A stretch of 64,000 bases of DNA. Source: Blastocatellia bacterium (GTDB taxonomy: Bacteria; Acidobacteriota; Blastocatellia; UBA7656). This document shows, one piece after another, positions 47,052 to 51,114 of this stretch. Location: positions 352,001 through 416,000 of the forward strand of contig CAVXWP010000001.1 of NCBI GenBank assembly GCA_963765495.1. The letters run 5' to 3'. The translations under genes and the position numbers were made by a program. The notes under the pieces are model-generated. The model was not told where the DNA came from and ran no database searches. It saw nothing but the letters and a program-made list of their open reading frames with translations. Position 1 is the stretch's first letter, and every line of letters starts with the position of its first letter.

Positions 47052-47540
47052 TCAGTGATTGAAAAGCCAGTTTTCAAAGACGCGCGCTTCTTCGCTCTTG
47101 CCGCTCCACCGCGCTCGGTTGCGGCCCGTCAATGCCAGCACCTCGGCGTGGTGTTGACCCGCGCGATCACCTATGCGCTCGAAATAGTTGTAGAGCCTTG
47201 CGATCTCGGCCACCGATTCCCTAGCCGCTTCCACGGTCTTGAAAGAGAGCACATTGCGGAAGTGCCGGCTGTAGAGATTCTGGTCGCGTGCGGTCGTGGT
47301 ATAAAGATCGAAGTATCCCTTGAGCAGCCCGGCATTCTGTAAGACGCTCGCCACATAGCTGGGCCGGGTTCCGACCGTCCGCGCGATCTCTCCGAGGTCG
47401 GTAACACCCGCCCGGTGAAGATCGAGAATCTGGTCCTTCTTGGTGATCTTTGGCCGCGCGTTTTGCATCCGGCTCTCTTTGACGCCGTTGGCCATTGAGG
47501 GAAGGACGCCTTGATTGAATTGAATCTGTTGTTCCTGCAT
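47052..47540 (-). CDS. Hypothetical protein with N-terminal HTH, last gene of the SWIM-Rad52 operon
   Basis: GGAGGT RBS; KKDQILDL...DLGEIARTVGTRPSYVASVL is HTH-like; helical C-terminal domain. Confidence 0.75.
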   Translation of the reverse strand: MQEQQIQFNQGVLPSMANGVKESRMQNARPKITKKDQILDLHRAGVTDLGEIARTVGTRPSYVASVLQNAGLLKGYFDLYTTTARDQNLYSRHFRNVLSFKTVEAARESVAEIARLYNYFERIGDRAGQHHAEVLALTGRNRARWSGKSEEARVFENWLFNH

Positions 47541-47592
47541 TTTATAACCTCCAAGCTTCTTCCAGCAGCGAGGCGGAGAGCCTGGCGATCCG

Positions 47593-48582
47593 TCAGCCCG
47601 CGTGGCGGATTTCGGTTCGATCTTCGGCCAGAGCCTTGAGGTGATCTATGAATGCGCTTGCGGCGCGGCGCGAAAGCTCTTCGGGGCGGCATTCGAGTAC
47701 GGCAAGGCATTCGGCCTCGGCATTCACACCCTTGACGTTTGAGATAGCGCGAATTGCAACCAGTTGTTTGGGCGTCACAAGATCGGCCATCGTCTTTGCT
47801 ATCGCATCGCGGGGGAACGCAGGCTGATGACCCGAAGCAGTGTTACCGTTCTTATGGATCACTTCCTCATCCTCCTTGCGATATAGCTCGCGCGCGATGC
47901 CGAATTTGACCGCGGCGCGTTTGAGCGCATCGTGCTCGGCCTTCTTTATTCCCACCTCATCGTAAGCCGAACCTGTGCCTACGCCCTGCCGCCTCACGCC
48001 CCGTATCGTTATGGAAGCCGTGACGGCGACGAAATCTCCAATCTGCTTTACATCGGTAACCTCGTGCGACCAGTCGGGGCAGATGCGATCAAGCAAATCC
48101 GCAACCTTGTGCCACTCCACATAATCGACTTCGTGCTCGCGGCCTGCCCGGTCTGTCCAGCCTACACGTTGTTTTACGATCTCGGGCGAGACGGCTTCCG
48201 ATAACTGCTTCAGCATTCCGGCAAACGGAGCGGGAGCCAGAAAAGGCATCTGCGCCTGCTCATCCTGCGCACTCTCTTCCTGCGACTCAAGCGATGGCTC
48301 CTCGATATGCTCTTCGCCGGTTTCATTCTGCGGCTCGAGATGGAATTTCACCGCGAGTATATGCTCGCATCTGAAGCGAATCTCTTCGGCTGCGCGCTGC
48401 TCAAATTCGGGGCAACTGCACCGGACCCGCCCGTCTTCGTCGCGCCAGATTCGGAATTTCTCTTTTCTGATTCCAGACGAATAGACGTTGAACCCTTCAT
48501 AATCGCGCTCGACTCCGCCCATGGCCGCGATTGCTCTGGCCCTGTTGATAAGCAAATTTGAATCTTCGATTGCTGCGCTCAT
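47593..48582 (-). CDS. SWIM zinc finger fused to a Rad52/Rad22-family single-strand annealing domain
   Basis: CSCPEF...CEH (SWIM); YVEWHKVADLLDRICPDWS...RQGVG...KKAEHDALKRAAVKFGIARELY (Rad52/22); C-terminal TPKQL...ASAFIDHL module. Confidence 0.85.
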   Translation of the reverse strand: MSAAIEDSNLLINRARAIAAMGGVERDYEGFNVYSSGIRKEKFRIWRDEDGRVRCSCPEFEQRAAEEIRFRCEHILAVKFHLEPQNETGEEHIEEPSLESQEESAQDEQAQMPFLAPAPFAGMLKQLSEAVSPEIVKQRVGWTDRAGREHEVDYVEWHKVADLLDRICPDWSHEVTDVKQIGDFVAVTASITIRGVRRQGVGTGSAYDEVGIKKAEHDALKRAAVKFGIARELYRKEDEEVIHKNGNTASGHQPAFPRDAIAKTMADLVTPKQLVAIRAISNVKGVNAEAECLAVLECRPEELSRRAASAFIDHLKALAEDRTEIRHAG

Positions 48583-48806
48583 TTACCTATTTCTCCTTCA
48601 CAGATCGAATTTGGATTAACACGTTCGGAAAGCCCGACCCGCAAATCAAAGCCTCGCTCAACTCTGTGCGCGTCTGCTTGCTCTACCGCTTCAAGTCGGC
48701 TCTCAAGCTCGCTTACCTGACGCGCGAGCATCTTTATCCTCCGCCAGAGAGCGTCGAAACTTTCCCAGACCTCTTCAGAATGAGAGTGCTCAGAATGGGA
48801 GTGCAT
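48579..48806 (-). CDS. Small coiled-coil protein
   Basis: GAGG RBS; ATGA overlap with the downstream gene; LWRRIKMLARQVSELESRLEAVE heptads. Confidence 0.65.
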   Translation of the reverse strand: MHSHSEHSHSEEVWESFDALWRRIKMLARQVSELESRLEAVEQADAHRVERGFDLRVGLSERVNPNSICEGEIGK

Positions 48807-49002
48807 CGTTTAGCCTCTCTCTCTGCCCGCAGGCGGCCTGATCAAACCTGATCTTGCCCGAAACTCCGCCGGCATATTCGGCTAACGACTCCCTTGCCTC
48901 CAGTTGCGACGACCAGAACTCATATCCTTTCCAGCCGTCCCATCCGGTCAAATCCTCTGCCGTTTCCAGCTTCAATAACCCTCTTTCGCCCGCTTCTCTC
49001 AT
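48790..49002 (-). CDS. Small hypothetical protein, first gene of the operon
   Basis: GAGGT RBS at 49009-49013; sits just downstream of a good promoter; overlaps the next gene. Confidence 0.55.
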   Translation of the reverse strand: MREAGERGLLKLETAEDLTGWDGWKGYEFWSSQLEARESLAEYAGGVSGKIRFDQAACGQRERLNDALPF

Positions 49003-49018
49003 ACTATTACCTCACTGC

Positions 49019-49109
49019 TGTTTCATACGTGAAACATTGTACCATTGTTCCTCGTTTGTTTCAAGTATAAAATAAAGTGTTGCATGCAACACGGTTTTCG
49101 TGTTATAAA
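49019..49109. promoter_or_regulatory. Divergent promoters with palindromic operator-like boxes
   Basis: Leftward TTGAAA (49064-49059), 17 bp, TACAAT (49041-49036); rightward TTGCAT (49080-49085) and TGnTATAAA (49101-49109); dyads TGTTTCA-n4-TGAAACA (49019-49036), TGTTTCA-n4-TAAAATA (49057-49074) and perfect GTGTTGCATGCAACAC (49077-49092). Confidence 0.75.
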
Positions 49110-49140
49110 ATGGGACAAGGATTAAGGAGGTGCCTGTAGA

Positions 49141-49566
49141 ATGGGAGAATCCGCTTTAAATATCATTGAGTTAGGAGAGTATGTTAAGCGCAAGAGGCAG
49201 GACGAAAAGCTTTCCTTACGGCAGGTTGCGATGAAAATTCAGGTCAGCGCATCTACGCTTTCGCGCATAGAAAACGGCATAGGCATTCCCGACAGTGCTA
49301 CGCTTGCGCGTCTTGCGTCCTGGCTTGGGATACCGCTTGAGAGGCTGATGAGAGGGTCTTTCTTAGGTGAAACAGTCGAGGGAATAGCCGCGGGGCCAGG
49401 CATAGAGCCTGTTATCTATTATCCGACCGAATCTACGCCGAACATAGTCGAAGCTCATCTGCGAGCCGACCGCAATCTGAAGCCGGATATGGCAAAGGCC
49501 CTGGCCGAGTTGTTCCGTGTTGCATACACGCAATTCTCCGACAAACAGACCGATCAAAATGGCTGA
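49141..49566 (+). CDS. XRE-family HTH repressor (DdrO/ImmR/CapH-like architecture)
   Basis: AAGGAGG RBS; LSLRQVA...VSASTLSRIENG...PD..TL..LA HTH; small C-terminal helical domain. Confidence 0.9.
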   Translation: MGESALNIIELGEYVKRKRQDEKLSLRQVAMKIQVSASTLSRIENGIGIPDSATLARLASWLGIPLERLMRGSFLGETVEGIAAGPGIEPVIYYPTESTPNIVEAHLRADRNLKPDMAKALAELFRVAYTQFSDKQTDQNG

Positions 49567-50191
49567 AGGTTACAGAACCGAGACCCCCTCAATCGAAGAG
49601 ATGTTGCCTCCGACGGCGAAACGGCGCGTACACGAGCGCATCGCGCTCAAGATACGCGAATTCGCCGGGGTTCCCATAGACCGACCGCTCAATCCCTGGA
49701 AACTGGCTCCATACGTAAAGATTCGAGTGATGAATCTCAAGGATGTCGAGGGGCTTTCCGAAGAGAGTCGAAGGTTGCTCGTAGGCGATAACGGCAAGAG
49801 CTGGTCGGGTGGGGCGACTCGTCCTCTGCCTGACGGGTCCCGGCTGGTCTTTCTCAATCCAAACCATACTACCGAGCGGCAGGCGGCTACATTGATGGAA
49901 GAGATATGTCACGTCATACTGGGGCACTCACCCACACGGCTGACCTTTCAGGCGCAGGAGGACAGGGAAGTCCATTTTCGAAACTTCGATGAAAATCAGG
50001 AAGAAGTGGCTTACGCCGTAGGGGCTGCCGCGCTGGTTCCATACTTTACACTCAAGCACGCGGTTATGGCCGGGTTGAGCGCCGAAAGAATTGCCCGACG
50101 ACTGGCCGTCAGTCGGGTTCTGGTCGAATACAGAATAAAAGTCTGTCGCCTCTGGAGCGAATACAAGGAGAGAGGCAGATTATCCGGCTAG
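49559..50191 (+). CDS. ImmA/IrrE-family metallopeptidase, EExxH variant
   Basis: VFLNPNH...RQAATLMEEICHVILGH...EEVAYAVGAAALVP, then HTH-like IARRLAVSRVLVEYRI; ATG 49559 overlaps the XRE stop. Confidence 0.85.
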   Translation: MAEGYRTETPSIEEMLPPTAKRRVHERIALKIREFAGVPIDRPLNPWKLAPYVKIRVMNLKDVEGLSEESRRLLVGDNGKSWSGGATRPLPDGSRLVFLNPNHTTERQAATLMEEICHVILGHSPTRLTFQAQEDREVHFRNFDENQEEVAYAVGAAALVPYFTLKHAVMAGLSAERIARRLAVSRVLVEYRIKVCRLWSEYKERGRLSG

Positions 50192-50292
50192 CGACGACTC
50201 GCGCGCACGCATTTCGATACATATTGAATCACTGAACGAGGACGCTCGTTCTTATTTGGTGATTTTGACTTCGAATTCCCCCAAATAGTATA

Positions 50293-50365: not shown

Positions 50366-50722
50366 GTGGACAACCTTATGAAGGTTAAGGTGGTTGGCGG
50401 GCGTGAGTGGGACGCGCTGTCGGGCACGTTGAGAAAAGAGCAGCACCTCATCCGCGATGATATAATCTACAGAGACGAGCAAACCGGCTCGCAGGTCGAA
50501 TCTTCATCAAATCACCTCAACCACACTTATATTAAGTTTTGTAACGTTTCTAACCTTCCTTTTGAGCAAAATTCGTTCGCAAGACTTCTACCCCCAGATT
50601 CAGCAGCCAAAATCGAGAAAACCATCGCTAAACGGCCGCCCATTTACTCATCTCCCCCGTATGTGCCTTTTGGGCCGGGCGTATTTGCCGATAAAGCTAC
50701 TGAGAGGAAGTGCCTACAGTGA
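50366..50722 (+). CDS. Hypothetical protein
   Basis: GGAGGT RBS, promoter upstream, GTGA overlap with the response regulator; no recognisable motif. Confidence 0.5.
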   Translation: MDNLMKVKVVGGREWDALSGTLRKEQHLIRDDIIYRDEQTGSQVESSSNHLNHTYIKFCNVSNLPFEQNSFARLLPPDSAAKIEKTIAKRPPIYSSPPYVPFGPGVFADKATERKCLQ

Positions 50723-51114
50723 CGAAAAAGATACTTGTTGTTGATGACAGCGACGATACACGCGAAATGATGGCCAAGTTATTGGAGCTTGAATCCTTCG
50801 ACGTGATAACGGCCGAAGATGGTCGCGTCGGATTTAATGTGGCTCAGAACGAACATCCCGACCTCATTATCACAGACATTAATATGCCAAACCTCAACGG
50901 CATCGAAATGATAAAGCTCATACGCCAGGAACCGGAGTTTGGGAAAGTACCGATAATGGCCATCACGGCTTATGGCAGCGGCATTGCGGCAGAAGCACTG
51001 GAGGCCGGGGCCAATCAGGCTACGACTAAGCCAATTGAATTTGATTCATTGATAGGGGGAATCAAGCGACTGCTGGATTTGTCAAAAACCAACGGAAAAT
51101 ACACCGGGTTCTAA
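50719..51114 (+). CDS. Single-domain response regulator (DivK/CheY-like)
   Basis: ILVVDDS, ITDINMP, AITA, TKPI. Confidence 0.9.
   Translation: MTKKILVVDDSDDTREMMAKLLELESFDVITAEDGRVGFNVAQNEHPDLIITDINMPNLNGIEMIKLIRQEPEFGKVPIMAITAYGSGIAAEALEAGANQATTKPIEFDSLIGGIKRLLDLSKTNGKYTGF

Follow-up and report, generated by a model that had tools for sequence, protein, structure and literature searches.

What is a repressor and peptidase gene pair doing on a bacterial chromosome when the operon that it faces encodes a Rad52-type annealing protein? Protease-triggered, LexA-independent damage switches are known from Deinococcus, from one integrative and conjugative element (ICE) and from the regulators of cyclic-oligonucleotide-based anti-phage signalling systems (CBASS), and the Deinococcus IrrE (PprI)/DdrO regulon includes the Rad52-family protein DdrA. 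We analysed a 64,000-nt stretch of the genome of a Blastocatellia bacterium (GenBank assembly GCA_963765495.1, contig CAVXWP010000001.1, positions 352,001 to 416,000), hereafter the window, whose own numbering is used unless a contig or locus is named. At 47052..50191, the segment that we call the module, genes for an XRE-family repressor and an M78 (ImmA/IrrE-family) metallopeptidase-like protein are transcribed away from a four-gene operon that includes a gene for a SWIM-Rad52 protein. The original prediction, made from these letters, had described a self-contained, IrrE/DdrO-like DNA-damage or desiccation module. We lean, with modest confidence, towards a vertically inherited chromosomal stress regulon of the Blastocatellia in which XRE represses three transcription units, M78 inactivates XRE, and Rad52-type annealases are thereby released.

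All six open reading frames (ORFs) were found at the coordinates that the prediction had given, and searches with hidden Markov models (HMMs) returned the SWIM, Rad52_Rad22, HTH_3 and Peptidase_M78 domains that it had named. The module and its terminator read as follows.

47052 to 47540, minus strand: p162, the operon's last gene, 162 aa (from the ORF list)
47593 to 48582, minus strand: SWIM-Rad52, a predicted single-strand annealing protein (Pfam SWIM and Rad52_Rad22)
48579 to 48806, minus strand: cc75, 75 aa, with a conserved N-terminal helix or coiled coil (from alignment)
48790 to 49002, minus strand: p70, the operon's first gene, a small acidic protein of 70 aa (from alignment)
49141 to 49566, plus strand: XRE-family repressor, 141 aa (Pfam HTH_3)
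49559 to 50191, ORF open from 49517, plus strand: M78 (ImmA/IrrE-family) metallopeptidase-like protein, 210 aa (Pfam Peptidase_M78)
50234 to 50259, plus strand: terminator-like hairpin and T-run 3' of the M78 gene (terminator scan)

Overlaps of 17 nt between p70 and cc75, 4 nt between cc75 and SWIM-Rad52, and 8 nt between XRE and M78 are consistent with two translationally coupled units that diverge across 138 bp. The M78 start, ATG 49559, is also the start in 24/24 complete M78 orthologues.

The region between the two units contains a conserved 16-bp operator palindrome, GTTTCATACKTGMAAC, copies of which overlap both divergent promoters. Its elements are listed here, the operators without strand.

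49019 to 49036: operator O1, a perfect 7-N4-7 palindrome, TGTTTCA-TACG-TGAAACA
49036 to 49064, minus strand: predicted sigma-70-type operon promoter, TTGAAA-17-TACAAT, with TG upstream
49057 to 49074: operator-like O2, a degenerate copy with left half TGTTTCA, over the -35 box of the operon promoter
49077 to 49092: operator-like O3, a perfect palindrome, GTGTTGC-AT-GCAACAC, over the -35 box of the putative XRE promoter
49080 to 49109, plus strand: putative XRE-M78 promoter, TTGCAT, an 18-nt spacer and TG-n-TATAAA, read from the sequence

O1 begins at the last base of the operon's -10 box and covers the start-site region; it is kept in 25/25 related loci that span the region, and its 18-bp pattern occurs once in the 7.3-Mb genome at up to one mismatch. 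The operon promoter matched 10 of 12 consensus positions in the promoter scan, in addition to the extended -10 element, and both hexamers are conserved in aligned intergenic regions. O2 departs from the 7-N4-7 pattern by two mismatches and forms an inverted repeat with O1; related loci keep it as TGTT(T/G)CAAG(T/G)ATAAAA, the reverse complement of which matches the operator of the second Rad52 gene described below. O3, unique in the genome at up to one mismatch, is kept in one sub-clade, whereas the other has in its place a variant two mismatches away from the main operator; the position of O3 over the XRE gene's own promoter suggests autoregulation. That promoter was missed by the scan because its -35 box is weak, and it therefore stays putative, while its TGTTATA(C/A)A element is kept in 25/25 loci. 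As far as sequence can tell, the arrangement of O1 to O3 is the layout of a repressor that would shut off both the operon and its own gene, and XRE is the predicted binding protein.

The operator is also found away from the module. Three sites in the 7.3-Mb genome have the exact 12-base core, GTTTCA-N4-TGAAAC, and one of them lies about 80 nt upstream of a second, unlinked Rad52_Rad22 gene on contig C2 (G000:C2 about 227.1-227.8 kb). This gene, Rad52b, encodes 204 aa without a SWIM domain, is 55% identical to the core of SWIM-Rad52 and matches Rad52_Rad22 at 46.8 bits. In 13/13 genomes that have the paralog, the palindrome stands at -65 to -81, inside a -35-like TTG(A/C)AA that is followed by a conserved extended -10, and the DNA farther upstream is unconserved. 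The locus is syntenic, with a divergent gene for an extracytoplasmic function (ECF) sigma factor detected in 9/12 related loci and a Cys- and Lys-rich protein of 322 aa, p322, downstream of Rad52b in 12/12, some of these being partial matches. In the source genome p322 lies directly downstream of Rad52b on the minus strand (G000:C2:225980-226948; positions 181-1149 of locus L035); its N-terminus is rich in Cys, its C-terminus is conserved, it contains a tandem Lys-Pro-Lys-Val-Gln-Ile repeat, and it gave no match to Pfam or PHROG.

We then asked how closely the operator follows the module among the 41 genomes covered by our operator and phyletic searches. The exact 16-mer GTTTCATACKTGMAAC gave 30 matches in all; it is present in 17/17 genomes of the family that have the module and in 0/8 that lack it, other families contributed a single match, and the reversed control pattern gave none in any of the 41 genomes. 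Of these matches, 17 belong to the intergenic region of the module and 10 precede the paralog, which leaves 3 at new sites. Two of the new sites precede operons of AHSA1-like and glyoxalase (VOC)/bleomycin-resistance-family genes (L220, G009:C20, 1501-2928; L218, G020:C1088, 602-1516), both in genomes without Rad52b. The module is thus not self-contained, contrary to the original prediction: the same operator stands before the unlinked Rad52b-p322 pair and, in two other genomes, before glyoxalase/bleomycin-resistance-family genes, and in one genus M78 itself is unlinked from XRE.

Three further candidates were set aside. The core palindrome at C16:318632 (about 2133-2148 of locus L036) overlaps the ATG of a Ser/Thr-kinase-like ORF together with its ribosome-binding site, and the 16-mer site of genome G039 lies over the ATG of a GH46 gene; both are probably chance occurrences. 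Two weak near-matches at G000:C2:27.5-28.5 kb, beside a transposase and a small toxin-antitoxin-like pair, were judged irrelevant. In the surrounding segment (L037, G000:C2:25500-30500) a 474-aa transposase-like ORF adjoins that two-gene pair.

How the module is inherited was traced by a synteny scan that took one genome per species and SWIM-Rad52 as the query. The protein was found at 26 loci with 59-73% identity, all on contigs of Blastocatellia or Acidobacteriota metagenome-assembled genomes (three of them mislabelled 'uncultured Clostridia'), in agreement with the suggestion that the window comes from an acidobacterium. XRE is present at 25/26 of these loci, M78 at 25/26, p162 at 24/26 and, by tblastn, cc75 at 21/26 and p70 at 15/26; the amidohydrolase flank is the same as in the window at 19/26 and the orf352 flank at 17/26, and the missing genes and flanks mostly reflect contig ends. 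Between the module proteins and the flanking genes, pairwise distances are correlated (r 0.69-0.88, compared with 0.79 for the two flanking genes against each other), and the mean distances of XRE (0.18) and M78 (0.22) lie close to those of the flanking amidohydrolase (0.16) and aldehyde dehydrogenase (0.21). Reading frames are intact in complete orthologues, with the exception of SWIM-Rad52 at one locus (L024, 6001-7021), where it matches as two overlapping pieces in different frames, possibly through a frameshift or an assembly error. In one genome of the family that lacks the module, orf352 and the amidohydrolase gene lie 267 bp apart, with hairpins and no remnant between them. Because synteny is conserved and the module proteins diverge in step with the flanking enzymes, we conclude that the module has descended vertically, with losses, at a fixed chromosomal site and without a mobile element; the claim that it is chromosomal therefore held at the same site across 26 contigs.

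Phyletic analysis further ties the repressor to the peptidase. Orthologues of XRE (E<=1e-25) and M78 (E<=1e-30) occur in exactly the same 24/41 genomes, each as a single copy. One genus (g31) has the two on different contigs in 5/5 genomes, and in 4/5 of these an operator-like palindrome still separates XRE from a Rad52 gene that it faces. In all five genomes (L095-L099) the unlinked M78 gene lies between a NuoI-like 4Fe-4S gene and a gene for a GAF and SpoIIE (PP2C phosphatase) protein, and no operator-like motif was found near it. The XRE-M78 pair also occurs in three genomes from another family and in two from a further genus, and no Rad52 gene was found in these; the switch therefore appears older than its Rad52 cargo. 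In the phylum Rad52_Rad22 is patchy, with 13 of 201 sampled Acidobacteriota genomes positive. In one lineage the operon has taken in a further recombination gene: a full-length recA begins 2 nt past the stop of the p162 homologue of genome G030 (L106, G030:C86, 3138-4178, minus strand), where a second full recA lies on a different contig. A role of the module in recombination or repair is supported, since two Rad52 genes appear to stand under one operator and recA lies within the operon of one lineage.

The mechanism that we favour can be set out from these elements. An XRE dimer would bind the 16-bp palindromic operator, whose copies lie over the -35 box and start site of the leftward promoter and over the -35 box of the XRE promoter, and would hold down three units: p70-cc75-SWIM-Rad52-p162, XRE-M78 and the unlinked Rad52b-p322. 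On a stress signal, most likely DNA damage, the GAF-less, EExxH-type M78 protein would inactivate XRE through its C-terminal domain, most likely by cleavage, for which the invariant L107-R108 is the candidate bond. The released Rad52-type proteins and their small partners would then act in recombinational or single-strand-annealing repair. We infer DNA damage or desiccation as the inducer because of the cargo: a pair of annealases, joined in one lineage by recA and in two genomes by bleomycin-resistance-family genes.

Since the module had been called IrrE/DdrO-like, we compared its two regulators with those of Deinococcus. The likeness stands for the kind of switch: both systems pair an XRE repressor that has a separate C-terminal domain with a COG2856/M78 protein, and in both a palindromic operator (here read as such from sequence) is common to several unlinked genes and the cargo includes the Rad52_Rad22 family. 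The peptidase gene can be unlinked from that of the repressor, as in the genus described above, and irrE and ddrO are unlinked in Deinococcus. Both systems coexist with LexA (PMC8072749, in excerpt), and the Leu-Arg pair of XRE lies near the position of the DdrO scissile bond (PMC6868357, in excerpt). The likeness does not extend to the peptidase itself, which is shorter than IrrE at 210 aa, lacks a GAF-like domain, has EExxH instead of HExxH and finds no IrrE chain by sequence in the PDB, either as a single-sequence query (E<=1) or as a profile (E<=10). Unlike the Deinococcus regulon, the regulon known here is small and leaves the genome's own recA outside, its annealase carries an N-terminal SWIM domain, its operator has a sequence of its own, and its host belongs to a different phylum. 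The module would thus seem to work like IrrE/DdrO with DdrA as cargo, but by domains, motif and sequence its peptidase falls outside IrrE.

In XRE a helix-turn-helix (HTH) domain (residues 1-72; HTH_3, E 1e-14) is joined by a variable linker (73-88) to a C-terminal domain (89-132) that is invariant and includes H106-L107-R108. Orthologues are 76-90% identical, and L107-R108 is unchanged in 22/22 sequences. The DdrO chains 6rnx, 6rmq and 6jq1 are matched at E 2e-4 to 3e-3, mainly through the HTH, in a manner that is unspecific, as other XRE proteins score equally well or better. The profile alignment to DdrO takes in the HTH and the start of the linker only (residues 10-81, stopping at 72-81), and one single-sequence alignment reaches residue 101 with low confidence. 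Cleavage of XRE by M78 would have parallels in all three known systems: IrrE cuts DdrO between L106 and R107 in the C-terminal dimerisation domain (PMC6868357, in excerpt), CapP cuts CapH between F82 and R83 in the dimerisation domain (bioRxiv 10.64898/2026.05.16.725639, in excerpt), and ImmA cuts ImmR at F95/M96 in its C-terminal part (cited in an excerpt of PMC6868357).

M78 is recognised by Peptidase_M78 (PF06114, 55.3 bits against a cut-off of 22) and by the PHROG metallo-protease family phrog_87 (7e-11). The Pfam match extends to about residue 194 of 210, with an HTH-like segment at the C-terminus, and a Pfam search gave no GAF domain. At the position of the family's HExxH the protein reads L-M-E-E-x-C-H-x4-H, unchanged in 22/22 orthologues. 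A profile search of 1.84 billion cluster representatives returned 863 relatives; among the best 150 of these, EExxH is found in 133 and, at the same alignment columns, HExxH in 8, the rest being 6 fragments and 3 others. The first metal-binding His therefore appears to be replaced by Glu in the whole subfamily, in which an otherwise catalytic-looking site is kept. Seven of eight long members of the subfamily are HTH_3-M78 fusions. Within the same best 150, E115, H118, H123 and E148 are near-invariant, and E148 stands in 140/140 aligned representatives; it is a candidate only for the counterpart of IrrE E113, the downstream Glu that serves as third metal ligand (PMC6868357, in excerpt). We found no paper that applies EEXXH to an M78 peptidase.

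The altered motif raises the first alternative, in which the regulon is the same and nothing is cut: M78 would bind the C-terminal domain of XRE and block its dimerisation, as Rir does with Crh of phage TP-J34. Glu in place of the first His in all 22 orthologues and in 133 of the best 150 relatives speaks for it, as does the report that Rir inhibits Crh oligomerisation without cleavage, a behaviour tied to an incompletely conserved peptidase signature (PMC6868357, in excerpt). We nevertheless consider this alternative unlikely, because a dead peptidase would not need the near-invariant catalytic Glu (E115), H118, H123 and downstream Glu (E148), and because Glu can bind metal. In ZIP8/ZIP14, transporters of an unrelated family, EEXXH in place of HEXXH keeps binding and shifts the preference toward Mn (PMC10457451, in excerpt); by analogy, the His-to-Glu change in M78 may alter its metal preference.

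Signal recognition would also differ from that of IrrE. In PprI a peptidase domain (19-135) is followed by an HTH (136-176) and a GAF-like domain (177-277) that is needed for binding of, and stimulation by, single-stranded DNA (ssDNA), and IrrE deprived of its GAF domain still cleaves but loses ssDNA binding and response (PMC10904395, in excerpt). It follows that the GAF-less M78 would need another trigger, unless it is active constitutively and kept in check by other means. To our knowledge, all characterised ssDNA-sensing switches of this kind use a GAF domain.

A more far-reaching version of the cleavage model joins these elements, and we put it forward tentatively, doubting it as a whole somewhat more than we trust it. 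The Blastocatellia would possess, beside LexA, a second DNA-damage or desiccation regulon with an origin independent of Deinococcus; a GAF-less M78 with a Glu site, maybe dependent on Mn or Fe, might respond to something other than ssDNA in a groove of the IrrE type and would cut XRE, a repressor like DdrO but not homologous to it, at L107-R108. It would so release two annealases, one of them with a SWIM finger, along with their small partners and, in some lineages, recA and bleomycin-resistance-family genes.

Several observations weigh against the stress regulon as we read it. With Glu for the first His and no GAF domain, M78 may not cleave, or may sense something else. By profile, the C-terminal domain of XRE, unlike its HTH, has no detectable sequence homology to that of DdrO, and the likeness of L107-R108 to the DdrO scissile bond could be a coincidence. 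The XRE-M78 pair of two other family-level groups, in which no Rad52 was found, indicates that the switch is not tied to annealases, and close Rad52 relatives occur on viral contigs. No operator was found at recA of the source genome, which keeps two lexA genes (G000:C2:86624-87220 and C8:124281-124877, each scoring over the TIGR00498 cut-off) and hence does not require a separate damage regulon. Finally, membership of the regulon across the genome rests on exact and near-exact pattern matches, which may miss weaker sites.

Could the pair instead belong to a conflict system? In this alternative a CapH/CapP-like switch would turn on the effector operon upon phage infection or DNA damage, and the Rad52 proteins would act on or against foreign DNA. 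The module does share with CapH/CapP of CBASS the two-gene XRE and M78 switch that faces a cargo operon, and XRE matches the PADLOC models HTH_VI (1e-11) and RmrA. The match of XRE to capH is weak (E 0.0026), and CapP combines an HTH with a GAF domain, often along with a cysteine-switch loop, whereas M78 is too short for a GAF domain and the cargo consists of recombination rather than defence genes. CapP itself responds to DNA damage through ssDNA, and the CapH scissile bond is hydrophobic-Arg (bioRxiv 10.64898/2026.05.16.725639, in excerpt). Distant plasmid relatives of M78 pair with HTH genes beside other cargo. On the Synechocystis plasmid pSYSX (L223, 54343-55295) an ImmA/IrrE gene whose product is 34.5% identical to M78 and an HTH gene are divergent from a multiubiquitin/E2/ThiF/DUF6527 operon; switches of this type therefore drive varied cargo. 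We regard a defence role as distinctly improbable, in view of four operon genes without a PADLOC match, a fixed chromosomal site among metabolic genes and outside any defence island, recA in the operon of one lineage, an operator before VOC/glyoxalase genes in two genomes, and module proteins that diverge slowly and in step with housekeeping genes.

Very improbable, in our judgement, is the idea that the module is a prophage or ICE remnant, a decaying switch region of repressor, ImmA-type protease and phage annealase with no host function today. Its arrangement does mirror phage and ICE switches: as in ImmR/ImmA of ICEBs1 from Bacillus subtilis and in phage cI-like/ImmA pairs, a GAF-less M78 gene overlaps an upstream XRE gene and the pair diverges from the operon that it controls (here, is predicted to control). 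PHROG Erf-like and single-strand annealing protein (SSAP) families match SWIM-Rad52 at 8e-10 and 2e-7, and SSAP families also match Rad52b. Viral contigs hold 195 Rad52 relatives, the best of which reach 46-54% identity across the core and C-terminus; one relative, 31% identical, spans residues 14-322 of SWIM-Rad52. These relatives lack an adjoining XRE, M78 or operator, and 50,697 phage records gave no match to M78 and a single match, at 35.6%, to Rad52. Unlike ImmR/ImmA, the module is non-mobile, has EExxH and has an unlinked predicted target locus that likewise conserves the operator. No integrase or transfer genes, structural genes or replication genes were found in its surroundings (for integrases, by Pfam scan), no tRNA in 35-64 kb of the window and no direct repeats bracketing the module, which bears out the earlier remark that integrase, phage and CBASS genes are absent and the flanks ordinary. 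Moreover, frames are intact in complete orthologues other than that of L024, divergence is similar to that of the flanking enzymes, and XRE and M78 are retained together even where unlinked. An ancient phage origin is possible.

That XRE and its COG2856 partner form a type II toxin-antitoxin-like pair beside an unrelated operon we find scarcely credible: such pairs appear in the literature as putative toxin-antitoxin systems (PMC6929052 and PMC10538038, in excerpt), and NCBIfam antitoxin-type HTH models match below threshold, but the operator is common to Rad52 genes at two loci, both genes are retained in the genus where they are split over contigs, and XRE-M78 is single-copy, slowly evolving and fixed in position.

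Returning to the stress regulon, we examined the predicted effectors. SWIM-Rad52 exceeds the cut-offs of both SWIM (PF04434; 22.4 bits, cut-off 19.6) and Rad52_Rad22 (45.9 bits, cut-off 20.3). SWIM occupies residues 1-85, an acidic, variable linker separates it from the Rad52_Rad22 core (about 121-236), and a helical domain (about 260-329) is conserved at the C-terminus. The CxC...CxH residues C55, C57, C72 and H74 are each kept in at least 90% of 14 aligned sequences, the exception being the SWIM-less paralog. The five best PDB profile matches are all to the N-terminal domain of human RAD52 (residues 123-232 on 40-164), weakly, at E of about 0.9, and in this alignment a conserved K-R pair coincides with that of the human protein. 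The K-R pair binds DNA in RAD52. With Rad52_Rad22 above its cut-off in both paralogs and SSAP families matched, the two proteins resemble RAD52, DdrA, Sak and Erf, and single-strand annealing is their predicted activity; the N-terminal SWIM zinc finger and the extra conserved C-terminal domain of SWIM-Rad52 set it apart from RAD52, DdrA and phage SSAPs. A metagenome study of Antarctic soil reported 303 clustered Rad52_Rad22 sequences, of which the only two from UniRef belonged to Acidobacteria; the cluster has a large N-terminal extension that DdrA lacks, and no regulation is described in the excerpted text (PMC10140301). This cluster is probably the same family as SWIM-Rad52.

The three remaining operon proteins are conserved and gave no match to Pfam, PHROG, PADLOC or NCBIfam families. 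p162 has 63-76% identity in 24/26 loci, always directly after SWIM-Rad52, with residues 35-162 conserved. Its profile search returned 3672 proteins at E<=0.001; among the best 120, named sources are 'hypothetical' and named organisms are Blastocatellia or Acidobacteria. A protein-atlas search with a homologue matched only 'hypothetical' clusters from Acidobacteriota by sequence, and we take the family to be restricted to that phylum. Its description as an HTH protein could not be confirmed by the family searches: residues of about 35-80 of a homologue have a weak structural similarity to HTH_38/HTH_23 models (template modelling score, TM < 0.3), and an HTH may lie at about residues 35-75. cc75 scores 17 bits with DUF7310, under the cut-off of 40, and its 22-sequence alignment has a conserved core and differences of 0.40/0.34/0.55 at the three codon positions, which are of coding type. 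The same holds for p70 in a 16-sequence alignment (0.42/0.38/0.57), where a Trp/Tyr-rich core and a C-terminal tip, (S/N)-D-(V/A)-(L/F)-P-F, are conserved; we presume a resemblance between this acidic-hydrophobic tip and the C-terminal tail of the single-stranded DNA-binding protein SSB. Three loci (L017, L021 and L023) have a spacer of only 311-335 nt and lack the two-ORF pattern of most others.

We found no description of this system in the literature on IrrE/DdrO/COG2856, Rad52/DdrA, SWIM and Acidobacteria; new here are the operator and its specificity, the second Rad52 target, the co-occurrence of XRE and M78 and the link to recA. The module is a natural variant of the switch in an abundant, poorly studied soil phylum, with an operator simple enough for a regulon to be traced by eye, and its two Rad52-type annealases are a cargo rare in bacteria. 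The peptidase subfamily, with 863 cluster representatives, combines a changed metal motif with the lack of a GAF domain. Operator, cleavage bond and metal dependence are testable predictions, and the module opens a way to study the survival of acidobacteria under drying and DNA damage. An N-terminally extended Rad52 family is abundant in Antarctic desert soil metagenomes, where the excerpted text gives no regulatory context (PMC10140301).

The surroundings of the module are metabolic and envelope genes and not a defence island. By Pfam, one flank holds glycosyltransferases, an aldehyde dehydrogenase and an amidohydrolase, and the other a response regulator, TPR proteins and a 3-hydroxyacyl-CoA dehydrogenase; Rfam gave no match across 46.0-51.5 kb. 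Just past the M78 terminator, a 118-aa ORF without a family match overlaps the start of a stand-alone response-regulator receiver gene (50366-51114 of the window), and this receiver gene is kept in most related loci and missing in some.

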